The notes under the pieces were generated by a model, which made no database searches, was not told the origin of the DNA, and saw nothing but the letters and a program-made list of their open reading frames with translations. A stretch of 64,000 nucleotides of DNA, taken from assembly GCA_026770705.1 (NCBI GenBank), contig JANJGN010000052.1, positions 3,100,001-3,164,000 on the forward strand, written 5' to 3'. Position 1 is the stretch's first letter. Each line of letters begins with the position of its first letter. This document shows positions 1,899-37,365 of the stretch, piece after piece. This stretch comes from Isurus oxyrinchus. Lineage: Eukaryota. The position numbers were made by a program, and so were the translations under genes.

Positions 1899-1938
1899 AT
1901 GATCGGGAAATCTTACTTCCTCCTGTCACTTATCCAAG
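1899..1938 (+). CDS. Gene A (Siglec-like activating receptor) signal-peptide exon MIGKSYFLLSLIQ
   Basis: Acceptor TTTCACAG ends 1858, ATG at 1899, hydrophobic core, phase-1 donor CAAG|GTAATA; splices in frame to V1 giving ...LLSLIQVGLSQEW. Confidence 0.85.
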
Positions 1939-2959
1939 GTAATAACATCGTCAGCTTGGACAGATTTATGGTGAATAGTCTTTGTAAAAGAACATTCTTA
2001 TTGAGCTCTGATAGGGAACCGATTCAGCAGTGAGCCAGTGTACAAACTCACACCAAGTCCCATTCACCCATCACCCCTGTGCTCACTGATATACACTGAC
2101 TCCCTGTCTGACAGCAGAACTGCAGGACAGCAGAGACCTCAAAGGGTTTCAGGGCTGGAGGAGGTGACAGTGATAGGGAGTGGAGAGGGAGGATGGAGGG
2201 ATAAGGAATCAATGAAGAGATTTTGAAAATTGAGTCATTGCTGGACTGGGAGCCAGTGGAGGACAGCGAGTGACAGGGGAGCGATGGGCTGAATAGAGAA
2301 GCAGGGATAAAAACTGGGGGATGAAGTCTATCCTGATGCAAGCACTCCGATATCAATGCCCTGAAATTTTTCTCTCTTGCTGATTTTCATCAGAATTTCC
2401 CATGAAGACAACACAGAAGCTCTTAGATTAGACAGGCAGTTCAGCGTCACACTTCCTGTCCCTTCTCACCATGCTAGAAAATTCGATAAGATAGCAAGAT
2501 AACTGATAGAGAGAAGGGCGGCAAAGCTGTCTGTGTGTAAAACTGTCAAATATTCTGAGTTATCATGATTGTTTCTGATCTGCTGCAGAGTTTAAATTTC
2601 ACAGAATCTGAGCACTTTGCAGCTCAGAGAGAGACCATTGACTCACTGCCTGAAAGGGCGGTGGAAGCAGATTCAACAGGAACTTTCAGAAGGGGAACTG
2701 GATAAATACTTGAAGGGAAATTTGCAGGGTTGTGGAGGAGAGAGTAGAGGTTAGAGTGGGACTTATTGGACAGATCTATCAAAGGCCCAGCACAGGCTCG
2801 ATGGGCCAAATGGCTTCCATCAGTTCCGGATCATTCTGCAATCCGATAAATTAAGTCTCTTATCAGTAACTCTTCAGGCTCCTGCTGCAGGAATGGATCT
2901 TTCATAAGGGCAGGGAACAAGCGGTTTCTCATATCATGTTCATATTTATTGACAATTAC

Positions 2960-5900
2960 ATAAGTGTATGGAACTGTTGAATATTTGAGTCTCTAAAGTG
3001 TGGATTTGACCTTCTGGTACACCCAGATCTTGTGCTGGTTACCTTGTCTGGAGGTGTCTTTAACTGCTCACAGTGATCTGTGGGATTGTCACCCTTGGAT
3101 GTTGTTCCTGATTTCATGTGGGATCTTCTCCTCGATGGAATAGGAGCGGGAATGGATCTGATTTATCCTCGGTTCCACCTCACCGCTGTGCCCTTGTGTG
3201 TTTGACTCCATAGGCCCTTGGTTCTGAACAAATCCTTGTCACCTCGGCTGGTGATCATGAACCTTCTGTGGGATCCTGGATGTGAACTTGTCCCAACTGT
3301 AAACTTGGCAACTCTGCACCTCCATTTTTATCATGAACATTCCTTATCTTCTCTTGTAGTTTTAAAAGTTGCCCTCTGGTTTCTGAGAGAGTAGAATGGG
3401 TAAGAGTAGCGAAATTGGTCACTACTGGCCCACCAAACATGATCTCTGTCAGTGACGGAATAAGGTGAGGTGATGGTGTAGTGGTATTGTTGCTGGATGA
3501 GTAATTCAGAGACCCAGGGTAATGTCCTGAGAATATGGGTTCAAATCCTGTCATAATAGATGATGGAATTTGAATTTAATAAAAATATGAAATTCAAAGT
3601 TTAGTGATGACCACAAAACCATTGTTGGAAATCCCACCTGGTTCACCAGTGCCCTTTAGGGAACAAAATTGTCTGGCCGACATGTGACTCCAGACTCCAC
3701 GTCAATGTGGTTAACTCTTACATTAGGGATGGGTAATAAATCCTGGCCTGGCCAGTGACTCCCACATCCCATGAATGAATTTAACAAAGTTGCAGTTGTA
3801 GGTGTCGATCTCAGATGTAACATTGCAATGTGTGGATCTTGCTTGGTCTGTCTACATTTGAGAATTAGGGATTTCACTGTGTGAATCATTCATTCAGCTA
3901 GGCTGTTAGATCTGGGGTAATGAGGAGAAGAAGTAGTGTGATTGATATTCCAGATTATCTGTAATCATGTCCCCAGTTTCACCACATAAACTGAAAATAG
4001 TGCTTAGAGTGTGTGCACCAGTTGTGCTTGGTGTGTTGTGCTATTTTTGAATAACGGGATATCTGGTAAAGCTGTCGACGATGACGATGATGTCAGTGAC
4101 ATGGACATGAAAGGATTCAGATGTGATTTTGGACTAAGAATGGGCAGGAATTTCCTGTGGAATCAGTGGTTCTTTGTGTTGACTTGGCTCATCCTCTTGA
4201 CAAGCCTCGTACTTCCCTACAACAACTTCAAGGTCATTGTTCATACCCGGCCAGTGACTGTATCTCTTGTGAGTCTCCTTGTCTGATCTGTGCCCATGTG
4301 TGAGGGATGAAGTTGTTGAAGAATATAGGATCACAAATGTTCCGGTATGATGCGATGCCTGCCATTAAAAATGACTCCCTGGGAGATGCCTCGCTTATCC
4401 CGATGAGGTCAAGTTGAATCAGGCCACCCTTTCAATGATATTTCCACAGTTCCTGTAGAATTTTTCACTGTTCGCTCTTGTAGCTGCTGTCATTTCTGTT
4501 GTGCTAAATATACTGGATCAATTGACAGACTTGCATTCTCCTGCAGCTGTAATGTTGCAGCTCCCTTGAAACTGCCAATACTGTTGAAACTTTCTGCATA
4601 TTTCAATGTTATGGCATGAACTGAGGTGATGGGGTAGTTTCTGAGGTTGACCCATGTGAGATCTGACAGATTCCTGGATTGTCACTAGTGTGAGGTCACC
4701 GCATGATGGTAGACTTGTAATTGCTCAGCCTTTAGTCTCCACAATGTAGAACATCTGTGACACCCAGGAAGATTGATTGTACTTGCACCCCAGGACTATG
4801 GATTCTGCACATGGAGTTGGTGAAGTGTTGTACACAGCAGTAGGTTTCCGATTGCCTTCCATGTCCTTGGATACATGTCTTTGAAAATTTGCTGGGGTGG
4901 GCTGGGGGAGGGGAATGTTGGCACTTGCCCCTGTGTCAATCTTGGCCAATAAAGGGGAGGTAGCAACTTTCTCAGGGCAGATAATTGGAATCTTGGCCAA
5001 TAGTGCGGGTGATGTGACAGCATCTGTTCTCCGTGAGATTGATGGTGTAAAAGGTGTGAAATTGTTCTACAATTGCAAAATACGTTGAGCACAAGTGTTG
5101 CACAAACTCTTGGCCGGGGTTTTGCGGCCCAGTCATGGTGGGACCTGCCGTGGGAGAATGGGACACACATAAATCCATTAGCTTTCGGCCGGACCGGACA
5201 ATCCTGGCAGTGGGTGGGGCCAGAAAATCCCACCCCTATTGGACATTTTCAGTTTATTTGATGTGCCCAGAGAGATCATTAAGGACAACAATCCACAATT
5301 TATTGGCAAGCCACGTTAGGATATGTGTGAGAGGTGGAATATCGATCACCGCTCCTCGTCTCGCCGTACACATCATCGCCATTTCCTGGTTTGTCAGTCA
5401 CTGCATGTATATGTTCCTGATGGGATAGCGGATGGTCATTCTTATTGCTTGAAGGTTCCCCGTTGTGTAGGGTCTGTTTGGATCAGCCCACGGCTCTTTG
5501 TAGCTGCATCAGCCTTTGCTCTAGTGCCCTGCCGCTGTCAATGGCCCTTTCTGCCACAAGCCTTGCAGGATTGGTGGAAAGCTGGGCATTTCCTTGGTGC
5601 CTGCAGAAGGCCACACCTTCCACATGTCTCACTAGGTTTGGATGTTCTAGTGAGTGTGTCAACAACTGATGTTGTACTGAGGACCTGTAAGCTTCGTTGA
5701 CCTGCGAGGATCACTTCGTATTTATGTCCATCCTTGAGTAGATCTTCAATGCTATAGGTTTTGGTCTTATCTAGCAGATCTTTCTGGAAGGCTTCCATGG
5801 GAGTGGATGCAATCACCAACTCAACAACTGTGTCTGCAGGCTCTGTGTTTGAAATCACAGTGCGTACCCTTTTCTCTACATCGGCTGATGAAGTGGTCTA

Positions 5901-6820
5901 TGGATTGTGTAGGCTGATGAAATGACATAAACTCTAGTTGATGAATATGGAGTTTCACCTGATTCTGAACCTGTCTTCCAATATCGTACATATCTATTGG
6001 GGATCCTTTCGCTCTTCTGCTGTTAATCCTGATGTCTTCAGCCTGTGTAGACCTTCATTCCCAATCACGAGGTGAATCTTTATGGCTTGTTCGTCTGGTT
6101 CAGTCACACCTGAATCAGGAAACCAGAGCTCTGTACGCTGTTTAAACATTCTGAATTCAGATAGTCGGTCAGCTACATCCCAGTTCAAACTGGGGAATTT
6201 CGTGGACATTCTGACAATATTCCTTTGACCTTCCTTCTCCTACAGACCTGGGGTGAGTGTCGCTTTAGCCCCTTTCCTGCGCTTTTCCGAAGCTCTGCCC
6301 ACGAGGACGGGTTGTGGCAGGAACACACCACGGAGTAATGGAGTCTTTGTTTTTTATTCAATTTACTGTTCAGCAATCTCGAAGCTGCCCGTTATAATCA
6401 CTAACTTCTCTGGGCTGATTTTTATAATGGTTTTTGTGTGTTTGACTCTCCCTCGCTCACTATCGATCCAGCCCACACCCTGGTCACTCGCCTTCCCTGA
6501 CTGAGCTAACCCGCTGCTGGTCCTGGCGATACACACTGTCCCACTCACTGACCTACAGGCCGTGTGCTGTAATCTCACCACGAGGGATCCGTCTGCTCCC
6601 CAGCTCTTTACTTGAGCTCTTTCCCGTCACTGTGTCTTCAAAGGTTTCCTGAGCAGTCAGTACACTGCGATTTCAACCCTGTCTGATGCTGTGTCTCTGT
6701 TGTGGTCTGACCAAAGCGTCGAGGGTCGTCTCATGTCATGTAGCTCGATCTAAGGCTGTTCACCACGTCATACCTGTACTGAATCTTGCTGCCAGAATGT
6801 TTGGCCACCGCTGATCACCA
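2960..6820 (-). mobile_element. Degenerate Ty3/Gypsy LTR retrotransposon (gag, zinc knuckle, protease, integrase fragments)
   Basis: Gag-like ORF 5994-6209, knuckle CGRCG...CPA...CKACGRKGH (5538-5858), protease IDTGAS (4725-5000), integrase-like fragments 3650-4340; many frameshifts; boundaries approximate. Confidence 0.8.
3465..3780 (+). mobile_element. tRNA-derived SINE (HE1-like elasmobranch type) nested in the Gypsy element
   Basis: A-box/B-box-like head (GGTTCAAATCC), with a body shared by other copies in the window. Confidence 0.65.
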
Positions 6821-7029
6821 TGTTGTGTTTTTATAATGATATAAAGGCACCAGCCACTGATACGGAATTGGGTAAATACATTGTGGGTTCAGTTATTTAG
6901 AACAGGGACATGAGAACAGATATACTAGGATAGAAAGCTGGGAGACACCTGCGGCCAAACTGTGTGAGCTGTGTTCTGCTCACAGGCCAAAGTGAAACTT
7001 GGACTGGATGGTGTTATCATCCCAGCTGA

Positions 7030-8700
7030 TGTTACTACTGGGCAAGTCAGATCCCAGGGTGGAGCTCAGTTTGATAGGTCCTAACTTTTATTTATTATTT
7101 AGGAATGTGGAGTACGGCAACTGAACAGAGTCACAGGAGTCATCTGATGATCTTCTAACAAAAGAATAAAACATTTATTAAACTAGGAAAGACAAACTAT
7201 ATTACATTACTCCTTCACCCAGACCTATACCTTTACAGATTCATAAGTAGAACATAAGTTACAATAGCTATCGTATACTCTCATGTTCACACTAAGTACA
7301 CAGTCGATGTAAACCAATAGACGACCTGTGGTCAGGGACACCACATTCTTAAAGAAACTGACAGAACCCACTTGAAACAAATGCCAAGTCTCCCTCCTCA
7401 TCTGACCCCAGACGCTTGTTACACTGTGAGCCAACCAGTCTCACTGACTCTCCAAGAACTCGCTTTGGAATCTTCTCCAACATGACACTTTCACTCAGAC
7501 ACCTTCCACAAGGGTCCACTTTCACTTTTTCAAACTCTCCTTCCCATGTTCCTGTCCCCTGGATCGCCACGTGCATTCAGCCTCCTTCCACGCCCTGTCT
7601 CTCCAATGCTCAGCCGTGTCAATGGAACACCATGGCTTCACATGGCCGTAGTAATGAGTCACCAACCTGTGGTGTTTCCTAGGATCTTCTGGCTTCTCGC
7701 AAGCCTATTTTGCTTTAGGCCTGTGTCCTGCTGCTTTCTCCCTTTATGTTTGGAGCCTTCTTCTGCTCCTCACTCAACTTCACTTAACAGGGCCTTTTCC
7801 AGATTTGACTAGAAGGTCTTCTTGGGCACTTTCTCCTGTTCCACTCGATAGTTTTGGCTTCATCTTTACTTTGGGACTGACTATCTGTCCCGCTCCTTTG
7901 CTGCTTCTCCTGGCAACTCCTTTCAACAGAACTGAAAGTACTTTTCTTTCTTTTTCAGTCTCTGTGGGTCTTTCCCTCTGGATCACTGTTACTAGGCAAC
8001 AGCACAGTTTCTTCTACCTTGTGTTTGTTTTTACTTCCCTTCAAGAGTCATAAAAACGCATTAGATAGGTGGCTTCTTCCAAAGTGAAACCAAAACTCGA
8101 GCTCCCCCTTTTCAAAACACCCAACTACAGAAATACAAACTAAACTTGAACTGAAAGATATACCTTATGCCTAACGCACACAAATACACAGAGAACTTCC
8201 TTTAGCCAAGCCCAACTCCTAAAAATCACATGACACACTTCCCCTCGAGTGATGTCATGCTGCTGTCCCTGAAAGGCATATTACAACAGTGTTATCACTT
8301 GGCAGGTGATGTGTGCCAGGCAGACCAAGTCCATGAGAGAAAGGTGGTCACACGATCATAATGATTTTGCAATTTGTATTTATTATGAGATGTGTGCACT
8401 GAATTCAGAAGCAATAATTACACCAAGACCTTTAGAGAGTTAAAAAAATAAATTAAAATATTTGTCATCAAAATAAAAGATTTTAAGCACATACATAAGA
8501 CTACAATGACTGCTATAATAACACCTAAAATTCCTAATTAACCTGACTCCCAGTTACACTCCCTTTAAGGCAACAGACCAAAAATAGATGTTAGATTTAA
8601 AACAAACTCAGCAAGTTAACACAATGCCCTGGACAGTGGAATTCCAAATGGATTTTCCCCAACTTCAGTTCTGTTGGATAGCAGGCTTGTGCACAAACAG
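7030..8700. mobile_element. LTR-derived repeat fragments; 8300-8700 is homologous to the solo LTR at 48955-49850
   Basis: GGTCAC..ATCA.AAT..TTTTGCAATTTGTATTTATT and following sequence align with 49012 onward. Confidence 0.5.
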
Positions 8701-8913
8701 GGTCCTGAGCACCATGAGCCAATGTAGAATGAACTTGTCCACTCCTGTGTCCAGGATTCTCTTCCATCCATTGTGATACCTTGTGGAGTTCCTTGTGTGT
8801 CCTGTAGATGGTCCAAACTGCAGCCACTGTGCCCCAGTGATGGAGGGGGTGGATATCGAGTCTAGTGGATCTACAAACCATCCAGAGTTTAATATTGATA
8901 TTTCTCTCCCCAG

Positions 8914-9291
8914 TTGGACTGTCACAAGAGTGGAAAGGTGACAGTCCCCGAGAGGTGACAGCGCAGGAAGGTTCATGTGTACAGATTCCATGTCATTACA
9001 GTTACTCATCACATTTGGTAAAGAAAACACATGTCGGAATCTGGTATATGAGGAGGTACATACAGAACAAATGGTCTAAATGGTCTATAGCCTTTCACTC
9101 CAAGGATCACAGTCACGAGTTACCACGGTTCCACCATCGGACCCGGCTGTCTGGAGACCTGAAAGATGGCGACTGTTCCCTGATTATAAACAACATCAGA
9201 CGGGAAGATGAAGGACCTTATTTTTTCAGAATAGAATTTGACAATGGTCCGAGCCATAACTATTACCCTGAAACCCAGCTTCAGGTTTCTG
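8914..9291 (+). CDS. Gene A V-set exon V1 (Siglec-type)
   Basis: CCCCAG acceptor, G|GTAAGT donor, 378 nt, phase 1-1, open; Siglec hallmarks CVQIPC, GDCSL and YFFRIE (essential Arg). Confidence 0.92.
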
Positions 9292-9499
9292 GTAAGTGCT
9301 GTGTTATAATTACTCAACAATTCACATCCAACACTCAATGGGAAATAATAATGTTTGATTTGCTTGTTTTTTGGCCGTGTTAACCAGCGTCACTATTTTT
9401 AATGATTTGTCTATTTCTGCTCCCAGATCCATGAGCTTATTGTGTGTGATTGAATCCACATCATAGCTGTAACATAAACCGAGCTGAGGGGTGATGACA

Positions 9500-10520
9500 C
9501 ATCCCCCCTGAGTGAAGTGTCTCCTCCCCACTACACCTTCCACCCCTCACACTGTCCGTGTAAACCCCCGTCCCATCTCCAGCCTCTCTTTCCCCTCCAA
9601 AGTCCTTGAACGTGTTTCCATCTCCCGAATCTGTTCCCATCTTTCCCGGAACTCCATGTTTGAATCCCTCCAATCAGGTTCCCACCCCAGCCACTGTGCT
9701 GAAACAGCTCTTATCAAGGTCACAAATGGCATCCTGTGTGACTGTGACAAAGGTCAACTTTCCCTCCTCGTCCTTCTCGATCTGTCTGCAGCCTTTGACA
9801 CGCTCGACCACACCAACCTCCTCCAACACCTCTCCACTGTCGTCCAGCTGGGTGGGACTGCTCTCCCCTGGCTCCATTCTTATCCATCTCATCGTAGCCA
9901 GAGAATCACTTGCAATGGCTTTGCAGCATCATCTGAACAGTGTTAGTTTTCACCTGTCCACTGAGGATCCCCAGCTCTACCTCACCACCACCTCTCTCGA
10001 CTCCTCCACTGCTGTTAAATTATCAGGCTGCTTATCCGACATCCAGTACTGGATGGGCAGAAATTCCCTCCAATTAAATATTGGAAAGACTGAAGCCATT
10101 GTCTTCATTCCCCGCTCCAAACTCTGTTCCCTCGCTACCAACTCCATTCCTCTCCCTGACAGCTCTCTGAGATTGAAGCCAATCTGTTCACAGCTTTGTT
10201 GTCCCATTTGATCCTGAGATGAGCTTCCGGCCTCATATCTGCGCCCTCACTAACACCGTCTATTTCCACCTCCGTAACATCGCATGACTTCACCCTGTCT
10301 CAGCTCATCTGCTGCTGAAACCCTCATCCACGCCTTCATTACCTCCAGACTCGACTGTTCCAACACACGCTCTACACTCCATAAACTTGAGGCCATCCAA
10401 AACTGCTGACCACGTCCTTACTCACACCAAGTCCCGTTCCCTTATCACCCGCTCTGCTCGATGACCGAGACTGGCTCCTGGTCAAGCAAAATGTCAACGT
10501 CCAAATTTTCATCTTTGTTT
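9500..10520 (+). mobile_element. L2-clade LINE reverse transcriptase fragment
   Basis: Translations AETALIKVTN..., LLVLLDLSAAFDT, DIQYWM..N.LQLNIGKTE with frameshifts. Confidence 0.85.
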
Positions 10521-10539
10521 CCTCACTATCCCTGTAATC

Positions 10540-10965
10540 TTCTCGTCCTCCTCCAGTACCTACAACCATCCCATTCTCTGTAACCTCTTCAAGCCTCTAC
10601 CGCTTCCCTATATCTGTAAATTCATCCTGCCCAACAAACCTACCAATCTCTGCAACCTCCTCCAGCCACTACAAACCTCCCTATTTCTGTAACTTCCTCA
10701 TGCCCCTAAAAGCTTCCCTATCTCTGTAGCCTGCTCCAGTCCCGACAACTTTCCCTGCCCCTGTAACCTGCCCCAGTCACTACAACCCTCCCTACCTCTG
10801 CAAACTCCTCCAGACCCTACACTTTTCCAAGCTCTCTTAACTTTTCCAGCCCCTACAACCCTCCCTATCTCTGTAACTCCTCCAATCACTACAAACCTCG
10901 CTATCTCTGTAACCTCCTCCAGCCCCTACAACCCTCCCTATCTCTGTAACCTCCTCCAGACCCAC
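10540..10965 (-). repeat. Degenerate 37-bp minisatellite (CCTACAACCCTCCCTATCTCTGTAACCTCCTCCAGCC family)
   Basis: Reverse complement of the array at 35660-36440. Confidence 0.8.
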
Positions 10966-11429
10966 CAACCTTCAGAGGTCTCTGCGCTCCTCCAATTCCA
11001 GCCTCTTGACCATCCCCCGATCTCAACACTCTAACATTGGTGGCCATGCCTTCAGCTGCCTGGGGACCGAGCTCCGTAATACCCTCCCTTAAGCCCTCTC
11101 CATCCCTCACACTCACTCTCTCTCTCTCACTAACCATTTCATCCCTCTTTTAAGTTTCTCCATAACACCGACCTCTTCTGGCCAGCTGTCGCTAATATCT
11201 CCACATGTGTCTGGGTGACATACTTTGTTTTATGACGCTCCTGTGTAGCACCTTGGGGTGATTTGTCATGTTAAAGTTGTTGTGTAAATATAAGTTGTTG
11301 CCCTTTGACCCGCGACCCCAGCTCGAGTCTTATTTTTGAGGGAATGTACAACCTCCTTAGATTTCTGACCAAAATGTAATTTGATTATTTTTATTGAGCG
11401 AATGCCAAGCCCCGATACCGAGCGAGAGC

Positions 11430-11800
11430 CTCCTCATTTGCTGAGTTTAAGGTGATGAGTCAGCCCCTTAGTCCGTAGAGGGGATTCTCCTCGGTAATGT
11501 GCAGCCTTGTTTGTGTCTCTCCACAAGCGCATGAGGGATTTGTACAGAGGCTGCAGCGCTGGAGGGGGTCTGCACAGGGGTCCTGGCCTGTCCTGAGCTG
11601 GTTTTAGCAAGGACCACTCTGGCCTTGGCAGCTGAAAGCCAGCCATTGGACAGACAGGGCCTGTCACATGGAGCCTGTTAGTCACTCCCCCCCGTGTCTC
11701 CTGTGCTCGGATCCAGACCATGTTGGCTGGTGGATCTGGCTCAGGAAGGGTCCTCCCCATGGGACCCCCAGATGGAAGGTGGGTCGAGCGGGTCAGTCAC
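11430..11800 (-). mobile_element. LINE ORF2 C-terminal fragment (RTEX/I-like), repeated in each 2.3-kb unit
   Basis: GFQLPR..WSLL motif followed by a frameshifted Cys-rich tail. Confidence 0.5.
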
Positions 11801-11844
11801 TTGCATGTTTATTCTGCAGCTTTAATATTTTAAGAAGGTAAGAA

Positions 11845-12630
11845 TGTAGGAACATAAGAAATAGGGACAGGAGCAGGCCATTCGGCCCCTCCAGCCTGCC
11901 CTCGCTGATCTGGTTGTGGCCTTAACTCCATTTTCCTGCCTGTCCCCCAAACCCTTGACTCCCTTGTCGATCAAAAACCTGCCTCACTCAGCCTTGAGTC
12001 TATTCAATGGCCCAGCCTCCACTGCTCTCTGGGGAAGAGAATTCCACAGGCTAGCGCCCCTCTGAGAGAGGAAATTCCTCCTCATCTCAGTCTTAAATGG
12101 GAGAGTCCTCATTCCGAAACTGTGCTCCCTGGTTCTAGATTCCCCCACGAGGGGGAAACATCCTCCCAGCATCCACCCTGTCAAGCCCCCTCGGAATTGG
12201 ATATGTTTCAATAAGGTCACCCCTCATTCTTCTAAACTCCAATGGATACAGGCCCAACCTGCTCAACATTTCCTCACAGGACAAACCCTTTAATCCCAGG
12301 AATCAGCCCAGTGAAGCTTCTCTGAACTGCCTGTACACAATGATCCTGTTACAATCTCACTAACGCCCTGTGTAGCTGTTGCAAGACTTCCCTCCTTTTA
12401 TACTCCATCCCTTTGCAATAAAGGCCAACATTCCACTTGCCTTCCTCATTCCGTGGTGTTCCTGAATGCTGACTTTCTGTGATTCATGTACAAGGACACC
12501 CAGATCCCTCTGTACTGCATTCTGCAGCCTGTCTCCATTTAAATAATATCCTGTTTTTCTATTCTTCCTGCCAAAATAATTTGTTGCCATTCTCCTCAGT
12601 ATTGACCATCCCCCCAATTCAGCCTCATCT
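11845..12630 (-). mobile_element. CR1 LINE 3' fragment, repeated in each 2.3-kb unit
   Basis: QRDLGVLVH, MLAFIAKG, WNSLPQRAVEA motifs and a CR1-type tail. Confidence 0.9.
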
Positions 12631-12695
12631 GTAAATTTTGAGTCTAGTGGATCCACAAGCCATCCAGAGATAAATATTGAGATTTCTCTCCCCAG

Positions 12696-13064
12696 CTGAA
12701 CCCTCACAAGAGTGGAAAGGTGACACTCCACGAGAGGTGACAGCTCAGGAAGGTTCGTGTGTACAGATTCCATGTCATTACAGTTATCCATCGTGTCTGG
12801 AAAACCAACCGCGAGGTGGACTCTGGTTTAATAATGAGAAACAGATTCCCTGGGCTCCCATTGCCTTTCACTCCAAGGATCACAGTCACGAGTTACCACG
12901 GTTCCGCCATCGGACCCGGCTGTCTGGAGACCTGAAAGATGGCGACTGTTCCCTGATTATAAACAACATCAGACGGGAAGATGCAGGACCTTATTTTTTC
13001 AGAATAGAATTTGACAATGGTCCGAGCCATAACTATTACCCTGTAACCCAGCTTCACGTTTCTG
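12696..13064 (+). CDS. Gene A V-set exon V2
   Basis: AG/GT bounded, 369 nt, phase 1-1, open, YFFRIE retained. Confidence 0.9.
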
Positions 13065-15004
13065 GTAAGTGCTGTGTTATAATTACTCAACAATTCACAT
13101 TCAACACTCAATGGGAATTAACACAAACTGTGACGTTTACATATTAACACAAAACACAGTTTATTATAACACACTGTCTGATTCTCAATAACCTGGTGAT
13201 AGCTTCCAGTTCAGTCCTAAAGCAATGTCTAATACTCACTTTAATATCAATGATTAAATGTGTTGACTGTGTCTATCAATGTTATCAGGTTATCCACTCC
13301 CATCAATCTCTCAAATCCTGTCTTGAAGTCTGACATATCGACAGAAGAAAGATTTACATTTCTACAGCGCCTTTCACCACCCTAGACTTCCCACCCTAAA
13401 CCTCTCCCTCTCCCTCTTCCTCTCCCTCTCTCTCTCTCTCTCTCTCTGTCTCTTTCTCTCTGTCTCTCCATAACACCGACCTCTTCTGGTCAGCTGTCGC
13501 TAATATCTCCACATGTGTCTGGGTGACATACTTTGTTTTATGACGCTCCTGTGTAGCACCTTGAGGTGATTTGTCATGTTAAAGTTGTTGTGAAAATATA
13601 AGTTGTTGCCCTTTGACTCTCGACCCCAGATCGAGTCTTATTTTTGAGGGAATGTACAACCTCCTTAGATTTCTGACCAAAATGTCATTTGATTATTTTT
13701 ATTGAGCGAATGCCAAGCCCCGATACCCGAGCGAGAGCCTCCTCATTTGCTGAGTTTAGGGTGATGAGTCAGCCCCTTAGTCCGTAGAGGGGATTCTCCT
13801 CGGTAATGAGCAGCCTTGTTTGTGTCTCTCCACAAGCGCATGAGGGATTTGTACAGAGGCTGCAGCGCTGGAGGGGGTCTGCACAGGGGTCCTGGCCTGT
13901 CCTGAGCCGGTTTTAGCAAGGACAACTCTGGCCTTGGCAGCTGAAAGCCAGCCATTGGACAGACGGGGCCTGTCACAAGGAGCCTGTTAGTCACTCCCCC
14001 CCGTGTCTCCTGTGCTCGGATCCAGACCATGTTAGCTGGTGGATCTGGCTCAGGAAGGGTCCTCCCCATGGGACCCCCAGATGGAAGGTGGGTCGAGCGG
14101 GTCAGTCACTTGCATGTTTTTTCTGCAGCTTTAATATTTTAAGAAGGTAAGAATGTAGGAACATAAGAAATAGGGACAGGAGCAGGCCATTCGGCCCCTC
14201 CAGCCTGCTCTCACTGATCTGGTTGTGGCCTTAACTCCATTTTCCTGCCTGTCCCCCAAACCCTTGACTCTCTTGTCGATCAAAAACCTGCCTCACTCAG
14301 CCTTGAGTCTATTCAATGGCCCAGCCTCCACTGCTCTCTGGGGAAGAGAATTCCACAGGCTAGCGCCCCTCTGAGAGAGGAAATTCCTCCTCATCTCAGT
14401 CTTAAATGGGAGAGCCCTCATTCTGAAACTGTGCTCCCTGGTTCTAGATTCCCCCACGAGGGGGAAACATCCTCCCAGCATCCACCCTGTCAAGCCCCCT
14501 CGGAATTGGATATGTTTCAATAAGGTCACCCCTCATTCTTCTAAACTCCAATGGATACAGGCCCAACCTGCTCAACATTTCCTCACAGGACAAACCCTTT
14601 AATCCCAGGAATCAGCCCAGTGAAGCTTCTCTGAACTGCCTGTACACAATGATCCTGTTACAATCTCACTAACGCCCTGTGCAGCTGTTGCAAGACTTCC
14701 CTCCTTTTATACTCCATCCCTTTGCAATAAAGGCCAACATTCCACTTGCCTTCCTCATTCCGTGGTGTTCCTGAATGCTGACTTTCTGTGATTCATGTAC
14801 AAGGACACCCAGATCCCTCTGTACTGCATTCTGCAGCCTGTCTCCATTTAAATAATATCCTGTTTTTCTATTCTTCCTGCCAAAATAATTTGTTGCCATT
14901 CTCCTCAGTATTGACCATCCCCCCAATTCAGCCTCATCTGTAAATTTTGAGTCTAGTGGATCCACAAACCATCCAGAGATAAATATTGAGATTTCTCTCC
15001 CCAG

Positions 15005-15373
15005 TTGGACTGTCACAAGAGTGGAAAGGTGACACTCCACGAGAGGTGACAGCTCAGGAATGTTCGTGTGTACAGATTCCATGTCATTACAGTTATCCAT
15101 CGTGTCTGGAAAACCAACCGCGAGGTGGACTCTGGTTTAATAATGAGAAACAGATTCCCTGGGCTCCCATTGCCTTTCACTCCAAGGATCACAGTCACGA
15201 GTTACCACGGTTCCGCCATCGGACCCGGCTGTCTGGAGACCTGAAAGATGGCGACTGTTCCCTGATTATAAACAACATCAGACGGGAAGATGCAGGACCT
15301 TATTTTTTCAGAATAGAAATTGACAATGGTCCGAGCCATAACTATTACCCTGTAACCCAGCTTCACGTTTCTG
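15005..15373 (+). CDS. Gene A V-set exon V3
   Basis: AG/GT bounded, 369 nt, open; carries an extra Gly>Cys (QECSCV). Confidence 0.88.
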
Positions 15374-17309
15374 GTAAGTGCTGTGTTATAATTACTCAAC
15401 AATTCACATTCAACACTCAATGGGAATTAACACAAACTGTGACGTTTACATATTAACACAAAACACAGTTTATTATAACACACTGTCTGATTCTCAATAA
15501 CCTGGTGATAGCTTCCAGTTCAGTCCTAAAGCAATGTCTAATACTCACTTTAATATCAATGATTAAATGTGTTGACTGTGTCTATCAATGTTATCAGTTT
15601 ATCCACTCCCATCAATCTCTCAAATCCTGTCTTGAAGTCTGACATATCGACAGAAGAAAGATTTACATTTCTACAGCGCCTTTCACCACCCTAGACTTCC
15701 CACCCTAAACCTCTCCCTCTCCCTCTTCCTCTCCCTCTCTCTCTCTCTCTCTCTGTCTCTTTCTCTCTGTCTCTCCATAACACCGACCTCTTCTGGTCAG
15801 CTGTCGCTAATATCTACACGTGTCTGGGTGACATACTTTGTTTTATGACGCTCCTGTGTAGCACCTTGAGGTGATTTGTCATGTTAAAGTTGTTGTGAAA
15901 ATATAAGTTGTTGCCCTTTGACTCTCGACCCCAGATCGAGTCTTATTTTTGAGGGAATGTACAACCTCCTTAGATTTCTGACCAAAATGTCATTTGATTA
16001 TTTTTATTGAGCGAATGCCAAGTCCCAATACCGAGCGAGAGCCTCCTCATTTGCTGAGTTTAAGGTGATGAGTCAGCACCTTAGTCTGTAGAGGGGATTC
16101 TCCTCGGTAATGAGCAGCCTTGTTTGTGTCTCTCCACAAGCGCATGAGGGGTTTGTACAGAGGCTGCAGCGCTGGAGGGGGTCTGCACAGGGGTCCTGGC
16201 CTGTCCTGAGCCAGTTTTAGCAAGGACAACTCTGGCCTTGGCAGCTGAAAGCCAGCCATTGGACAGACGGGGCCTGTCACAAGGAGCCTGTTAGTCACTC
16301 CCCCCCCGTGTCTCCTGTGCTCGGATCCAGACCATGTTGGCTGGTGGATCTGGCTCAGGAAGGGTCCTCCCCATGGGACCCCCAGATGGAAGGTGGGTCG
16401 AGCGGGTCAGTCACTTGCATGTTTATTCTGCAGCTTTAATATTTTAAGAAGGTAAGAATGTAGGAACATAAGAAATAGGGACAGGAGCAGGCCATTCGGC
16501 CCCTCCAGCCTGCTCTCACTGATCTGGTTGTGGCCTTAACTCCATTTTCCTGCCTGTCCCCCAAACCCTTGACTCTCTTGTCGATCAAAAACCTGCCTCA
16601 CTCAGCCTTGAGTCTATTCAATGGCCCAGCCTCCACTGCTCTCTGGGGAAGAGAATTCCACAGGCTAGCGCCCCTCTGAGAGAGGAAATTCCTCCTCATC
16701 TCAGTCTTAAATGGGAGAGCCCTCATTCTGAAACTGTGCTCCCTGGTTCTAGATTCCCCCACGAGGGGGAAACATCCTCCCAGCATCCACCCTGTCAAGC
16801 CCCCTCGGAATCGGATATGTTTCAATAAGGTCACCCCTCATTCTTCTAAATTCCAATGGATACAGGCCCAACCTGCTCAACATTTCCTCACAGGACAAAC
16901 CCTTTAATCCCAGGAATCAGCCCAGTGAAGCTTCTCTGAACTGCCTGTACACAATGATCCTGTTACAATCTCACTAACGCCCTGTGCAGCTGTTGCAAGA
17001 CTTCCCTCCTTTTATACTCCATCCCTTTGCAATAAAGGCCAACATTCCACTTGCCTTCCTCATTCCGTGGTGTTCCTGAATGCTGACTTTCTGTGATTCA
17101 TGTACAAGGACACCCAGATCCCTCTGTACTGCATTCTGCAGCCTGTCTCCATTTAAATAATATCCTGTTTTTCTATTCTTCCTGCCAAAATAATTTGTTG
17201 CCATTCTCCTCAGTATTGACCATCCCCCCAATTCAGCCTCATCTGTAAATTTTGAGTCTAGTGGATCCACAAACCATCCAGAGATAAATATTGAGATTTC
17301 TCTCCCCAG

Positions 17310-17678
17310 TTGGACTGTCACAAGAGTGGAAAGGTGACACTCCACGAGAGGTGACAGCTCAGGAAGGTTCGTGTGTACAGATTCCATGTCATTACAGTTA
17401 TCCATCGTGTCTGGAAAACCAACCGCGAGGTGGACTCTGGTTTAATAATGAGAAACAGATTCCCTGGGCTCCCATTGCCTTTCACTCCAAGGATCACAGT
17501 CACGAGTTACCACGGTTCCGCCATCGGACCCGGCTGTCTGGAGACCTGAAAGATGGCGACTGTTCCCTGATTATAAACAACATCAGACGGGAAGATGCAG
17601 GACCTTATTTTTTCAGAATAGAAATTGACAATGGTCCGAGCCATAACTATTACCCTGTAACCCAGCTTCACGTTTCTG
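17310..17678 (+). CDS. Gene A V-set exon V4
   Basis: AG/GT bounded, 369 nt, open. Confidence 0.9.
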
Positions 17679-19613
17679 GTAAGTGCTGTGTTATAATTAC
17701 TCAACAATTCACATTCAACACTCAATGGGAATTAACACAAACTGTGACGTTTACATATTAACACAAAACACAGTTTATTATAACACACTGTCTGATTCTC
17801 AATAACCTGGTGATAGCTTCCAGTTCAGTCCTAAAGCAATGTCTAATACTCACTTTAATATCAATGATTAAATGTGTTGACTGTGTCTATCAATGTTATC
17901 AGTTTATCCACTCCCATCAATCTCTCAAATCCTGTCTTGAAGTCTGACATATCGACAGAAGAAAGATTTACATTTCTACAGCGCCTTTCACCACCCTAGA
18001 CTTCCCACCCTAAACCTCTCCCTCTCCCTCTTCCTCTCCCTCTCTCTCTCTCTCTCTCTGTCTCTTTCTCTCTGTCTCTCCATAACACCGACCTCTTCTG
18101 GTCAGCTGTCGCTAATATCTACACGTGTCTGGGTGACATACTTTGTTTTATGACGCTCCTGTGTAGCACCTTGAGGTGATTTGTCATGTTAAAGTTGTTG
18201 TGAAAATATAAGTTGTTGCCCTTTGACTCTCGACCCCAGATCGAGTCTTATTTTTGAGGGAATGTACAACCTCCTTAGATTTCTGACCAAAATGTCATTT
18301 GATTATTTTTATTGAGCGAATGCCAAGCCCCGATACCGAGCGAGAGCCTCCTCATTTGCTGAGTTTAGGGTGATGAGTCAGCCCCTTAGTCCGTAGAGGG
18401 GATTCTCCTCGGTAATGAGCAGCCTTGTTTGTGTCTCTCCACAAGCGCATGAGGGGTTTGTACAGAGGCTGCAGCGCTGGAGGGGGTCTGCACAGGGGTC
18501 CTGGCCTGTCCTGAGCCGGTTTTAGCAAGGACCACTCTGGCCTTGGCAGCTGAAAGCCAGCCATTGGACAGACGGGGCCTGTCACAAGGAGCCTGTTAGT
18601 CACTCCCCACCGTGTCTCCTGTGCTCGGATCCAGACCATGTTAGCTGGTGGATCTGGCTCAGGAAGGGTCCTCCCCATGGGACCCCCAGATGGAAGGTGG
18701 GTCGAGCGGGTCATTCACTTGCATGTTTATTCTGCAGCTTTAATATTTTAAGAAGGTAAGAATGTAGGAACATAAGAAATAGGGACAGGAGCAGGCCATT
18801 CGGCCCCTCCAGCCTGCTCTCACTGATCTGGTTGTGGCCTTAACTCCATTTTCCTGCCTGTCCCCCAAACCCTTGACTCTCTTGTCGATCAAAAACCTGC
18901 CTCACTCAGCCTTGAGTCTATTCAATGGCCCAGCCTCCACTGCTCTCTGGGGAAGAGAATTCCACAGGCTAGCGCCCCTCTGAGAGAGGAAATTCCTCCT
19001 CATCTCAGTCTTAAATGGGAGAGCCCTCATTCTGAAACTGTGCTCCCTGGTTCTAGATTCCCCCACGAGGGGGAAACATCCTCCCAGCATCCACCCTGTC
19101 AAGCCCCCTCGGAATCGGATATGTTTCAATAAGGTCACCCCTCATTCTTCTAAATTCCAATGGATACAGGCCCAACCTGCTCAACATTTCCTCACAGGAC
19201 AAACCCTTTAATCCCAGGAATCAGCCCAGTGAAGCTTCTCTGAACTGCCTGTACACAATGATCCTGTTACAATCTCACTAACGCCCTGTGTAGCTGTTGC
19301 AAGACTTCCCTCCTTTTATACTCCATCCCTTTGCAATAAAGGCCAACATTCCACTTGCCTTCCTCATTCCGTGTTGTTCCTGAATGCTGACTTTCTGTGA
19401 TTCATGTACCAGGACACCCAGATCCCTCTGTACTGCATACTGCAGCCTGTCACCATTTAAATTATATCCTGTTTTTCTATTCTTCCTGACAATATAATTT
19501 ATTGCCATTCTCCTCAGTATTGACCATCCCCCCAATTCAGCCTCATCTGTAAATATCGGGTTCAGTGGATCCACAAACCATTCAGAGTTAAATATTGAGA
19601 TTTCTCTCCCCAG

Positions 19614-19979
19614 CTGAACCCTCACAAGAGTGGAAAGGTGACACTCCACGAGAGGTGACAGTGCAGGAAGGTTCCTGTGTACAGATTCCATGTCATTATA
19701 GTTATCCATCATGTCTGGAAAACCAACCGCGACGTGGAGTCTGGCTTAATAATGAGGAATGGAGAACATCGTCTATAGCCTTTCACTCCAAGGATCACAG
19801 TCACGAGTTACCACGGTTCCACCATCGGACCCGGCTGTCTGGAGACCTGAAAGATGGCGACTGTTCCCTGATTATAAACAACATCACATGGGAAGATGCA
19901 GGACCTTATTTTTTCAGAATAGAATTTGACAATGGTCCGAGCCATAACTATTACCCTGTAACCCAGGTTCACGTTTCTG
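19614..19979 (+). CDS. Gene A V-set exon V5
   Basis: AG/GT bounded, 366 nt, open. Confidence 0.9.
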
Positions 19980-21915
19980 GTAAGTGCTGTGTTATAATTA
20001 CTCAACAATTCACATTCAACACTCAATGGGAATTAACACAAACTGTGACGTTTACATATTAACACAAAACACAGTTTATTATAACACACTGTCTGATTCT
20101 CAATAACCTGGTGATAGCTTCCAGTTCAGTCCTAAAGCAATGTCTAATACTCACTTTAATATCAATGATTAAATGTGTTGACTGTGTCTATCAATGTTAT
20201 CAGTTTATCCACTCCCATCAATCTCTCAAATCCTGTCTTGAAGTCTGACATATCGACAGAAGAAAGATTTACATTTCTACAGCGCCTTTCACCACCCTAG
20301 ACTTCCCACCCTAAACCTCTCCCTCTCCCTCTTCCTCTCCCTCTCTCTCTCTCTCTCTCTGTCTCTTTCTCTCTGTCTCTCCATAACACCGACCTCTTCT
20401 GGTCAGCTGTCGCTAATATCTACACGTGTCTGGGTGACATACTTTGTTTTATGACGCTCCTGTGTAGCACCTTGAGGTGATTTGTCATGTTAAAGTTGTT
20501 GTGAAAATATAAGTTGTTGCCCTTTGACTCTCGACCCCAGATCGAGTCTTATTTTTGAGGGAATGTACAACCTCCTTAGATTTCTGACCAAAATGTCATT
20601 TGATTATTTTTATTGAGCGAATGCCAAGTCCCAATACCGAGCGAGAGCCTCCTCATTTGCCGAGTTTAGGGTGATGAGTCAGCACCTTAGTCTGTAGAGG
20701 GGATTCTCCTCGGTAATGAGCAGCCTTGTTTGTGTCTCTCCACAAGCGCATGAGGGGTTTGTACAGAGGCTGCAGCGCTGGAGGGGGTCTGCACAGGGGT
20801 CCTGGCCTGTCCTGAGCCGGTTTTAGCAAGGACAACTCTGGCCTTGGCAGCTGAAAGCCAGCCATTGGACAGACGGGGCCTGTCACAAGGAGCCTGTTAG
20901 TCACTCCCCCCCCGTGTCTCCTGTGCTCGGATCCAGACCATGTTGGCTGGTGGATCTGGCTCAGGAAGGGTCCTCCCCATGGGACCCCCAGATGGAAAGT
21001 GGGTCGAGCGGGTCATTCACTTGCATGTTTATTCTGCAGCTTTAATATTTTAAGAAGGTAAGAATGTAGGAACATAAGAAATAGGGACAGGAGCAGGCCA
21101 TTCGGCCCCTCCAGCCTGCTCTCACTGATCTGGTTGTGGCCTTAACTCCATTTTCCTGCCTGTCCCCCAAACCCTTGACTCTCTTGTCGATCAAAAACCT
21201 GCCTCACTCAGCCTTGAGTCTATTCAATGGCCCAGCCTCCACTGCTCTCTGGGGAAGAGAATTCCACAGGCTAGCGCCCCTCTGAGAGAGGAAATTCCTC
21301 CTCATCTCAGTCTTAAATGGGAGAGCCCTCATTCTGAAACTGTGCTCCCTGGTTCTAGATTCCCCCACGAGGGGGAAACATCCTCCCAGCATCCACCCTG
21401 TCAAGCCCCCTCGGAATCGGATATGTTTCAATAAGGTCACCCCTCATTCTTCTAAACTCCAATGGATACAGGCCCAACCTGCTCAACATTTCCTCACAGG
21501 ACAAACCCTTTAATCCCAGGAATCAGCCCAGTGAAGCTTCTCTGAACTGCCTGTACACAATGATCCTGTTACAATCTCACTAACGCCCTGTGCAGCTGTT
21601 GCAAGACTTCCCTCCTTTTATACTCCATCCCTTTGCAATAAAGGCCAACATTCCACTTGCCTTCCTCATTCCGTGGTGTTCCTGAATGCTGACTTTCTGT
21701 GATTCATGTACCAGGACACCCAGATCCCTCTGTACTGCATACTGCAGCCTGTCACCATTTAAATTATATCCTGTTTTTCTATTCTTCCTGACAATATAAT
21801 TTATTGCCATTCTCCTCAGTATTGACCATCCCCCCAATTCAGCCTCATCTGTAAATATCGGGTTCAGTGGATCCACAAACCATTCAGAGTTAAATATTGA
21901 GATTTCTCTCCCCAG

Positions 21916-22281
21916 CTGAACCCTCACAAGAGTGGAAAGGTGACACTCCACGAGAGGTGACAGTGCAGGAAGGTTCCTGTGTACAGATTCCATGTCATTA
22001 TAGTTATCCATCATGTCTGGAAAACCAACCGCGACGTGGAGTCTGGCTTAATAATGAGGAATGGAGAACATCGTCTATAGCCTTTCACTCCAAGGATCAC
22101 AGTCACGAGTTACCACGGTTCCACCATCGGACCCGGCTGTCTGGAGACCTGAAAGATGGCGACTGTTCCCTGATTATAAACAACATCACATGGGAAGATG
22201 CAGGACCTTATTTTTTCAGAATAGAATTTGACAATGGTCCGAGCCATAACTATTACCCTGTAACCCAGGTTCACGTTTCTG
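21916..22281 (+). CDS. Gene A V-set exon V6
   Basis: AG/GT bounded, 366 nt, open; same protein sequence as V5. Confidence 0.9.
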
Positions 22282-23009
22282 GTAAGTGCTGTGTTATAAT
22301 TACTCAACAATTCACATTCAACACTCAATGGGAAACAACACAAACTGTGACGTTTACATATTAACACAAAACACAGCTTATTATAACACACTGTCTGATT
22401 CTCAATAATCCGGTGATAGCTTCCAGTTCACTCCTAAAGCAACCTCTAATACTCACTTTAATATCAATGATTAAATGTATTGACTGTGTCCATCAATGTT
22501 ATCAGGTTATCCACTCCCATCGATCTCTCTAATCCTGTCTCGAAGTCTGACTTAGCGACAGAAGAAAGATTCACAATTCTGTAGCACTTTTCACCACCTC
22601 AGCACGGACCAAATCACTTCACAGCCAAAGAGCTGATTCCTGAATTTTAGTTACTATTGTAATGTGGGAAACACAGCAACCAATTTGCGCACAGCAAGCT
22701 CCCACAAATTGCAAAGTAAAAAATGGCCTAGATCGCTGAGGGACTGATGGGTTAGTGCACTCCAAACTCTGGTCTGCTCCACCACCCTCACCCACTATTA
22801 TCAGTTCAAGTGTCTCGGAGTGAACGTGTATTAAGCTGAGAGACAGAAACACCAAAGTCTCAAAGCAGGAAATTCTCTCCTAATCATTGTAACCTCTCAG
22901 ATCTGATATCATCCTTGTAAAAGTGCTTTTTCTTGTGGGACTGTGATTTCTATTTGAACTGATGCTTCACGTTATATTTCTCTAAAAGGATCCATTCTCT
23001 GTGTGTTAG

Positions 23010-23306: not shown

Positions 23307-23630
23307 GTAAGTACGGACACCCTTCATTCTACATCAGCACTCCCTCAGCGCTGACCCTCTGACAGTGCAGCCCGTTCTCAGTGTCCACATTCTCATGCCT
23401 CTCAAAGTGCTTCACAGTCGATAGAAGTTAACTGATCTTTATTTGATTGTTGCTGAATGAAGAGACAAGCTGTCTAAACTTTGCATCTCACACACATTAT
23501 TTTCCATGGCAACACCTCCTCCAATCAGAGACCACTTGCTGATTAACCAGCACTCTCTTCCCTTTAAATATAAATTGTTGTTCACTTTCTGTTGGTAAAC
23601 CTGCAATCTGTCTTGTTGAGTCCAGTCCTG

Positions 23631-23781
23631 ACATCTGAATATTACAATGAACAGAACAAGTTCCAACAATGAGCTGTGGTTGGTGATTCCTCACGTTACA
23701 TCCAGGGACACTGGAGACTATCAGTGTGCTCAGAGAATGAACATGGAGCAGTGGAGGGGTTCATAACCATCACTGTGGAAC
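23631..23781 (+). pseudogene. Decayed 3' half of a third-type C2 exon in gene A
   Basis: HLNITMNRTSSNNELWLVIPHVTSRDTGDYQC matches gene D repeats; 5' half missing; 1-nt deletion after the Cys codon; donor changed to GTTAGT. Confidence 0.85.
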
Positions 23782-24895
23782 GTTAGTTAAGACAAACTTC
23801 AACATCTCTCTCAGATTGAAACGCTACAAAAACACACATAAATATACAGCCTTAAATAGACACCTGCATACACACAATCCCACATCTATGAGCACACACA
23901 AAGACACACTCACAAACAAACACACTAGCACATACTCCCCTGTGGATTACCTGACCTCCCTCAGTGCTGCACCGGAGAGTTGACCTGGATTCTGGGATTT
24001 GTGTTCCCTTTCATATTTATGGAAGAATATGGAAATTGCAAAGTCTATTACAGACACTCAGATGCACAGAGATACTCACAGATACTCTCTGCCTCTCCAA
24101 CTCTCTATCCTACTTTAAGAACCTTCCTGAAATCTAACTCTTTGACCAGTCACCAGTCCCAATTCCTCCTTACGTGATTTTGTGTGAAATTTTGTTTGAG
24201 TATCTGAGAGTAAGAGGGAAGTGGAGAGGTTTAGGAAGGGAATTCCTGTTGCTGAAAAGCTTACATCAAGTTCTCAGCTTTCCAGTGCCCATTTTTCACA
24301 TGATGTCCATGTTCATAATGGGGATTGCCTATGTAAACATCACGCTGTAGTTACACTCTCCCACCAGTGGTAGCACGGTAACACTTAACCCTTGCATCTC
24401 CAAGCTTTTCAAGCAATTTCACTTCCTAATTTCCTACTATTCACCTCAACCATTCCCTGTGGGAGCGAGTTCCATATTCTCCCCTCTCTCTGGGTAAAGA
24501 TTGGAACTGTTTATTAAGCGGGGGGTGTAAGTCCGTGGGGGAGTCCATCCCGATACTGCCCGATTCGCACACACGGCTGAGATGGATTTTCACCCGGCAC
24601 TAAAGGTTTCCAGAATTTTCTACAGCACAATCCTGTACACAGCGATGGAGAGAAACATTGGACAGGGAGTCCAACAGCACAATGATCCATTCTCACCAAT
24701 GTTCCACGCTAAGGAGAAAGTTCCGATTGTCCACTCTTAGAGTGTTTACAATGAAAACATTCATTCCACATTGAATCCCAGTGGATGGGTCAATATTACA
24801 GCAAATGTTGCAGTGATATGAAGCTTGATTGTTCAGCCAGAGTGAGAGATTGAAAGCGGAGAGTCAGTGATGATTTCTTTCTGTGTGTTCTCTAG

Positions 24896-25035
24896 ACAGT
24901 GGAGGAGAGATTCTGCACGTGATCCTGATCCTGGGAATACGAGCTGTGATATTCCTTGTGGCTGTGGTTATCACTATCACTGGAGTCTGTGTCTGGGAGA
25001 GACAAACAGTGAAAGGAAGTCGACAGACTGTTTGA
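24896..25035 (+). CDS. Gene A terminal exon: TM with intramembrane Arg and short tail, (D)SGGEILHVILILGIRAVIFLVAVVITITGVCVWERQTVKGSRQTV*
   Basis: Polypyrimidine tract plus TAG acceptor; phase 1 matches the C2 donor; Arg codon CGA 24940-24942; TGA 25033-25035. Confidence 0.85.
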
Positions 25036-25425: not shown

Positions 25426-25767
25426 ATTACATTGATTAACTCAAGTGATTAAAATGCTCAGCCTGTTCTGTAGATATTTAAAGATTAAAATTCTTGTTTT
25501 GCTGCAAAATACTTGGCTCAAAGACATAGCTTCCTGTTGTCACGTTTTCCAATCAGATGAATTCCTCTGTCCATCTTTATAATAGAAATTTCCAATGTAA
25601 ACATGTCACATTGTAACTGCACACTCTTGCCAGTGGGTGGTGTGATACCAAAGCTGTCTTGCTGCAGAGAAACAGCGAGAAATATTCCTGTTGTGTGCAT
25701 GAACTTCATGTTAGCATGAGACACAGGCATCAGATGAAATTTTGTGCTATTTGTACAATGTTCTTTA

Positions 25768-26286
25768 GACAGTGCAGCACTCCCTCAGATCAGACCCTCC
25801 GACAATGCAGCACTCCCTCAGTTCAAACCCTCTGACAGTGCAGCACTCCCTCAGTTCAGACCCTCCGACTGTGCAGCACTCCCTCAGTTCAAACCCTCCG
25901 ACAGTGCAGCACTCCCACAGTTCAGAACCTCCGACAGTGCAGCACTCCCTCAGTTCAGACCCTCTGACAGTGCAGCACTCTCTCAGTTCAGACCCTCTGA
26001 CAGTGCAGCACTTTCTCAGTTCAGACCCTCTGACAGTGGGGCACTCCCTCATTTCAGACCCTCCGACAGTGCAGCACTCCCTCAGTTCAGACCCTCCGAC
26101 AGTGCAGCACTCCTTCAGTTCAGACCCTCCGACAGTGCAGCACTCCCTCAGTTCAAACCATCCGACAGTGCAGCACTTCCTCAGTTCAAGCCCTCCGACA
26201 GTGTAGCTCTCCCTCAGTTCATACCCTCCGACAGTGCAGCACTCCCTCAGTACTGAACCTCCGACAGTGCCGCACTACCTCAGTAC
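25768..26286 (+). repeat. 33-bp minisatellite array
   Basis: About 15 units of GACAGTGCAGCACTCCCTCAGTTCAGACCCTCC. Confidence 0.95.
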
Positions 26287-37179: not shown

Positions 37180-37365
37180 TTTGTAACCTCCTCCAGCCCC
37201 TACAACACTCCTTATCTCTGTAACCTCCTCCAGCCCCTACAACCCTCCCTATCTCTGTAACCTCCTCCAGCCCCTACAACACTCCTTATCTCTGTAACCT
37301 CCTCCAGCCCCTGTAACCCTCCCTATCTCTGTAACCTCCTCCAGCCCCTGTAACCCTCCCCATCT
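37180..37365 (-). repeat. 37-bp minisatellite, inverted relative to 35660-36440
   Basis: About 5 units. Confidence 0.9.

Follow-up and report, generated by a model that had tools for sequence, protein, structure and literature searches.

Why should V-set immunoglobulin exons that stand in line in a single shark gene share a nearly uniform framework and differ in a few loops, and what has made them differ? This question is raised by a stretch of 64,000 nucleotides of the Isurus oxyrinchus genome (assembly GCA_026770705.1, contig JANJGN010000052.1, positions 3,100,001 to 3,164,000 of the forward strand), the whole of which is called the window here. It carries seven exons for Siglec-type V domains, six of them (V1-V6) in one gene and the seventh (V7) in a neighbouring gene. 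A preliminary description of this DNA put the differences down to diversifying selection on ligand specificity against a homogenised background. We consider it reasonably probable that the six exons are instead parts of one Siglec gene whose likely product, by in-line splicing, is a six-headed and likely activating receptor with predicted disulfide links from domain to domain, and that their differences are those of three old loop classes, likely traded among some 500 gene copies by recombination and not selected inside the array.

The six exons of the gene lie on the forward strand. V1 (8914..9291, 378 nt, GIWYMRRYIQNKWSKWSIAF) has a class A loop between the C and C' strands (9045-9086), a histidine and no cysteine in the BC loop (9012) and its arginine codon at 9228. 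Class B loops are found in V2 (12696..13064, loop 12827-12859), V3 (15005..15373) and V4 (17310..17678), each of 369 nt and of the variant GLWFNNEKQIPWAPIAF, with BC-loop cysteines at 12794, 15103 and 17408 respectively and with 1-3 residues differing between any two of them. Class C loops are found in V5 (19614..19979, loop 19745-19774, BC cysteine at 19712) and V6 (21916..22281, loop 22047-22076, BC cysteine at 22014), which are 366 nt long and share the variant GVWLNNEEWRTSSIAF. The two sequences are identical, and 11 exons of other family genes have this sequence as well. Three variants of these lengths were what the preliminary description had reported. In V3 a glycine-to-cysteine change at 15061-15063 creates a fifth, unpaired cysteine, which may impair folding or permit dimers. 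V7 (62683..63048, reverse strand), the sole V exon of its gene, also has a class C loop, with a histidine in place of the BC cysteine and an alternative F-G loop. All seven exons have AG/GT ends and open frames, and all are of phase 1-1 with identical splice sites. V2-V6 belong to five tandem 2.3-kb units of intron plus V exon (11094..22598, forward strand) that are 95-98% identical by self-BLAST and unit alignment and differ from one another at 7-48 intron sites. Duplication of V5/V6 in the assembly was considered and rejected, their units differing at 12 of 1384 intron sites.

In an alignment of the seven exons 89 of 381 columns are variable and 54 of these lie within columns 90-179, whereas the maximum in 10,000 permutations was 38 (p<1e-4). 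Divergence is therefore non-uniform, and the clustering of variation from the BC to the C-C' region that had been described is confirmed, although not in every detail. Within V2-V6 alone the excess is confined to C-C' (14 columns in 151-180, 2 per BC bin), and the BC part of the claim does not hold there. The near-invariant 3' half is a property of V1-V6 and is lost when V7, which brings 14 variable columns at 331-360 (F-G loop and G strand), is included. Most intron sequence was likewise said to be almost invariant, and this is correct inside the units of V2-V6, where the downstream intron of units U3-U5 shows 0/321 differences. It is not correct for the introns of V1, which match those of V2 for approximately 50 nt on each side and are unrelated beyond, nor for the 200 nt before V5/6. 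In the latter, V5/6 differ from V3/4 at 13/200 sites, compared with 7-15/1384 further upstream, which shows that the divergent tract takes in intron. A wider sample of the family was drawn from 1.454 Mb of three contigs (C52, C71 and C189, the window included), several stretches of which were picked for holding arrays; it contains 129 V exons in 62 groups, of which 15 broken exons were dropped to leave 114 intact and 90 unique. The 90 unique exons show three peaks of variability, at the BC loop and C strand, at C-C' and at F-G/G. These variable faces are the ligand-contacting faces of Siglec-7, the site of which is made up of residues of BC, C-C' and G-G' (PMC12117448; this and the other sources given by PMC number are cited for the part of each that was available). 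Clustering in the loops as such is what is expected for Siglecs.

Identification of the gene as a Siglec comes from several features. The best PDB matches of V2 are Siglec-5 and Siglec-7 (E ~1e-15) and its variable stretch aligns to the part of Siglec-7 that lies between strands C and C', so that the assignment to Siglec-type V domains varying at C-C' is upheld. Pfam V-set and Ig_CD22 score above cut-off in the 4/4 V exons scanned. The essential F-strand arginine is present as a YFFR motif, aligned with that of Siglec-5/7, in 7/7 window V exons. Cysteines at positions 21, 26 and 83-87 of each V and at 22, 28 and 80 of the first C2-set exon (C1) provide the B-E pair and a spare cysteine for a predicted bond between V and C2. 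The same combination of V-set fold, arginine, B-E pair and spare cysteine is shared, according to the PDB matches, with Siglec-5, -7, -8 and -10, CD33 and MAG; with regard to the CD33-related Siglecs this is a likeness of domain matches and no claim of orthology, and the RefSeq names of the relatives are automatic. These relatives are from sharks and rays; identity reaches 98% with white-shark and 93% with basking-shark sequences.

The layout of the gene is unusual. A leader (signal-peptide) exon (1899..1938, forward strand, ATG at 1899), placed by its sequence, by the N-terminus of RefSeq shark relatives and by a leader-to-V loose end in RNA contigs, is followed by V1-V6 and then on the same strand by C1 (23010..23306; three cysteines, one of them six residues past the B-strand cysteine), the broken half of a C2 exon (23630..23786) and a transmembrane (TM) exon with an intramembrane arginine and a short tail (24896..25035, stop at 25033), which also ends the white-shark models P0021 and P0026. 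Leader, V1-V6, C1 and TM exons make up an open frame of 897 amino acids, whose membrane segment contains an arginine and which lacks a tyrosine motif. Six in-line V exons thus precede a single C2-set exon and the usual layout of one V-set and then C2-set domains is absent, although the V7 gene does have it. As far as sequence can tell, the window gene has the features that define a Siglec. It strays further from the rule of a single V domain than Siglec-12, the known exception with two; its several V exons mark it as a variant. A basic residue in the TM segment and the lack of an immunoreceptor tyrosine-based inhibitory motif (ITIM) are of the activating type. Inhibitory relatives with near-identical ectodomains, the same loop classes and ITIM tails are represented by the V7 gene and many others, and the mean C1 distance among family genes is 2.3%. 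The window gene likely resembles the activating member of a paired Siglec set (PMC6288428). A third class of tail with tyrosine motifs other than ITIMs was also seen (e.g. C52 3096145 and 3221697).

Evidence on splicing was obtained from contigs of four runs, from two samples and two organisms, which are presumed to be RNA and speak for the family as a whole. GT..AG joints from V to C1 and from C1 to TM were found in 4/4 runs, with the broken C2 exon skipped. Among the loose ends listed for run X2, three contigs have 11 letters of a V end ahead of a V6-type start and four have the leader ahead of the other start type. The V6-type start is found in 38/67 non-first and 0/62 first exons. By the splicing seen in the family, V ends of the window gene would be joined to V starts, the last of them to C1 and this to TM, giving the 897-residue chain with all six sialic-acid arginines. 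At position 23234 C1 reads A where nearly all RNA contigs read G (arginine versus glycine), a private variant that could assign transcripts to the locus.

Further support for in-line use comes from a cysteine seven residues after the B-strand cysteine, in the BC loop. It was found in 66/67 non-first V exons of the sample, in 4/57 leader-adjacent first exons and in 0/5 leaderless first exons, these counts not being independent because recent paralogues and regions chosen for their arrays are included. The window shows the same pattern, with histidine in V1 and V7 and cysteine in V2-V6. Among RefSeq relatives from catsharks, houndshark, bamboo and whale sharks, sawshark and rays the cysteine is present in 32/40 later V domains and in 4/111 'first' V domains, all four in N-terminally incomplete models (counted after six C1 domains miscalled as V were removed by hand). 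In Siglecs the V domain is linked to the next, a C2 domain, by a disulfide (PMC10122656). In a comparable manner the spare A'-B cysteine of each shark V domain would bond the BC-loop cysteine of the next, and the first V would do without this cysteine because it has no upstream partner. In-line splicing pairs every cysteine of the ectodomain except the private one of V3, while any of V2-V6 placed first would expose a free thiol. In AlphaFold models of basking-shark relatives (P0011 and P0016) the V-C1 pair matches CD33 and Siglec-10 in geometry (Z 19, rmsd (root-mean-square deviation) ~3 A). The modelled V-V pair suggests a head-to-tail layout similar to that of Siglec V-C2, which is not proof, as models without atom distances cannot show a V-V bond.

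The origin of the three variants becomes clearer from the rest of the family. Exact matches in the genome number 634 for a V 27-mer, 497 for a C1 22-mer and 221 for the Arg-TM exon; the 27-mer catches 118/129 sampled V exons, which puts the total at ~690, and the 22-mer catches 57/59 sampled C1 exons. From these counts, which uncollapsed haplotypes may inflate, the cluster is estimated at about 500 gene copies. The C-C' loops of the sample fall into three classes (A, B and C) that match the three variants of the window. Class A occurs only at the first position (22/22 unique), and the order A, B, C is kept in the 13 groups with at least three V, with one exception in a last exon. Arrays of paralogues vary from 3 to 7 V, which together with the kept order fits unequal crossing-over, and 8/8 groups with at least four V end in the Arg-TM exon. 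B and C loops are found in both states of the BC cysteine (B 34/14, C 14/6), recurring with or without it according to position; all three classes combine with both F-G types. Site incompatibility grows with distance, as recombination predicts, and compatibility between adjacent sites exceeds that after permutation (p=0.0005). B-like loops are present in Heptranchias, Pristiophorus, Chiloscyllium, Scyliorhinus and the ray Pristis, C-like loops in Heterodontus, Scyliorhinus, Mustelus and Pristiophorus, and class A loops in white and basking shark; RefSeq also has multi-V models in catsharks and rays. On this distribution the three variants are ancient loop classes of the whole family and not products of the window array. 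Recombination would homogenise the framework and reshuffle BC, C-C' and F-G cassettes. The window gene itself is likely a recombinant with a swapped head (window 1899-12695). Its V1 differs by 1 nt from the leading V of a two-V gene, and its leader-V1 region is 98.5% like that of a two-V gene at C52:630818; the V1-V2 intron has its nearest matches (98.4-98.7%) in the array lineage, whose usual head is another one. This usual head of long arrays is without the essential arginine, which V1 of the window keeps: among intact first V exons followed by a further V, 15/29 carry serine or threonine in its place, as against 0/66 non-first exons (one has lysine). A fourth C-C' loop lineage was seen on Arg-TM genes (C52:3522407, 510654, 461861, 142885 and 655952; C189:721876; C71:374442), and 7/7 sampled copies are broken. 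A few V and C1 exons at C34:15136755-15186158 lie far along a large contig, the flanks of which could give the synteny of the cluster. No account of a shark Siglec expansion or of multi-V shark Siglecs was found in the literature searched, although subscription papers and supplements outside the search may hold counts; the available part of the whale-shark genome paper names Siglecs once and mentions no expansion.

Ongoing positive selection on BC and C-C' for new glycan specificities, acting against the homogenised background, remains the main competitor to this account, and we regard it as unlikely though deserving of serious attention. It would explain the placing of variation on ligand-facing loops (PMC12117448) and the wealth of loop sequences, with 28 for C-C', 33 for BC and 32 for F-G among the 114 intact exons. 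Synonymous and non-synonymous diversity (piS/piN) over the 90 unique exons is 0.26/0.21 in BC, 0.43/0.32 in C-C', 0.29/0.16 in F-G and 0.055/0.036 in the core (C'-D-E-F). The homogenised framework that had been proposed is evident in these figures, as is an 8-fold higher piS in C-C' than in the core; piS climbs together with piN in the loops, and family-wide pairwise piN/piS exceeds 1 in no region. Omega estimated from a separate tree for each region is 0.43 in the A-B strands (p=3e-5 for a difference from 1), 0.7-0.8 in F-G, 0.8 in the core, 1.6-1.8 in BC (p=0.16) and 1.1-1.3 in C-C' (p=0.44), the last two being not significantly above 1 in short regions (11-17 codons) of low power and with recombination. 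No loop passes the comparison of models M2a and M1a. The dN/dS check proposed with the preliminary description thus places BC and C-C' above the A-B strands and none of them significantly above 1, and the idea that local diversifying selection produced the three variants is not borne out, since the classes are family-wide. In addition, the B/C difference runs 200 nt into the intron, and B and C exons of identical sequence are present in many genes. Some of the BC difference goes with the place of the exon in the array, through the cysteine of non-first exons, and is better read as structural. From these diversities the loops are judged older and less constrained than the framework, and relaxed constraint has been described for converted exons of Siglec-11/16 (PMC5701461). 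Selection long ago may have made or kept the loop classes, which would be compatible with our explanation by old recombining classes.

Two other explanations concern the array. The V exons could be alternative cassettes, chosen in the manner of Dscam or by free skipping, with one leader picking one or a few V so that the variants diversify isoforms. Phase 1-1 and identical splice sites would keep any subset of V in frame, cysteine pairing would survive the skipping of internal V exons, and the white-shark isoform P0131 lacks the first V. We nevertheless hold this to be improbable: any of V2-V6 on its own would bear a free thiol, joints between V exons are present in the family contigs, the listed leader joints go to the other start type, 15 basking-shark isoforms among those listed retain all V domains (in an automated model that may merge genes), and exon choice would add little where V5 equals V6 and V2-4 are nearly the same. 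Of similarly low probability is the proposal that the array is a neutral by-product of accordion-like change, or partly an assembly artefact, the copy number of V2-V6 having no function. In its favour are the youth of the units, paralogues with anything from 3 to 7 copies, 15/129 broken exons and uncollapsed haplotypes, which may inflate gene counts; however, the intron differences between units show that they are not duplicated reads, every sampled array of at least four V ends in an Arg-TM exon, class order is kept and multi-V models are found in catsharks and rays. The in-line, recombining array that we favour must itself be set against a number of observations that weigh against it. The V-V joint is an 11-nt loose end from one run, of which any gene of the family could be the source, and each contig covers one junction at most. 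Isoform P0131 joins the leader to a Cys-bearing second V, so skipping may occur. The modelled V-V pair fits the same Siglec V-C2 structures loosely (rmsd 5.5-8.1 A). The cysteine rule has five exceptions in this genome and 8/40 in relatives, the single-V white-shark model P0133 carries the BC cysteine, and the fifth cysteine of V3 is left unpaired. On the side of selection, one core site passes M2a (p=0.008, uncorrected among 17 tests), class A C-C' has a piN/piS of 1.86 (bootstrap 0.023, uncorrected and with uncertain alignment) and the omega of BC leaves room for positive selection.

The rest of the window holds the remainder of the ITIM-bearing V7 gene (50147..61823, reverse strand), with C1 at 61823-61527, seven whole and two partial C2 exons, TM near 52060 and tyrosine motifs at 50248 and 50179. 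Its C2 exons form ~1-kb tandem repeats with CA-rich introns (52997-61308, reverse strand), and the number of C2 among family genes ranges from 0 to 9, a second accordion that sets stalk length. A dispersed 33-bp minisatellite family lies at 901-1081, 25757-26303, 33075-33364, 35331-35599, 43096-43302 and 50575-51072 and a 37-bp minisatellite at 10521-10976, 35656-36438 and 37182-37367. No tRNA or tmRNA genes were found in the window.

The shark genes can be compared with several known systems. Primate Siglec-12 also has tandem V-set domains at its N-terminus, two in number, and has lost the essential arginine in an outer V, as have shark paralogues and not the window gene (PMC6288428). It differs from the window gene in the latter's six V domains (up to seven in paralogues) and Arg-TM anchor without ITIM, and perhaps in the position-specific BC cysteine of the shark gene. 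Siglec-5/14 and Siglec-11/16 likewise place near-identical ectodomains on ITIM and basic-TM receptors, their likeness being maintained by gene conversion (PMC5701461, PMC6288428, PMC13358205); the shark has hundreds of genes instead of pairs, shuffles loop cassettes within exons and varies the number of V. In gene number, the approximately 500 copies of the shark compare with ~15 Siglecs in humans and four regular Siglecs in teleosts (PMC7226832). The paired immunoglobulin receptors CHIR of chicken, NITR/LITR of teleosts and LILR/PIR also form large activating/inhibitory clusters shaped by birth-and-death and conversion, and the N-proximal TM arginine of the shark gene resembles that of their FcR-gamma-coupled members. 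They are to our knowledge not lectins, and we know of no disulfide chaining of V domains in them.

What makes the locus of interest is its six-headed layout, the dependence of the BC cysteine on position and the number of genes in the family. The C-C' loop reportedly sets glycan linkage specificity in loop swaps between Siglec-7 and -9, and it is plausible that the shark classes differ in specificity. The classes may differ in glycan preference, repetition of V may raise avidity for dense sialoglycans, and signalling would run through a putative adaptor with an immunoreceptor tyrosine-based activation motif (ITAM). A natural series of loop swaps and valencies is available for testing the effects of C-C' loop and avidity on glycan specificity. 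The locus also cautions that loop-focused divergence of paralogues can stem from old recombining cassettes and domain position and not from recent selection. It is conceivable, though we would still lean against it, that sharks possess a germline combinatorial anti-glycan repertoire, in which ~500 Siglec genes reshuffle three loop cassettes, swap heads between activating and inhibitory tails and stack 1-7 V domains into disulfide-chained polyvalent rods that sense glycan type and density, with the longest rods kept for activating receptors against sialic-acid-coated microbes. Siglecs are customarily seen as some 15 genes with one binding domain each. Hundreds of copies and chains of as many as seven intact binding domains would, if true, revise the view of sialic-acid sensing in early jawed vertebrates.

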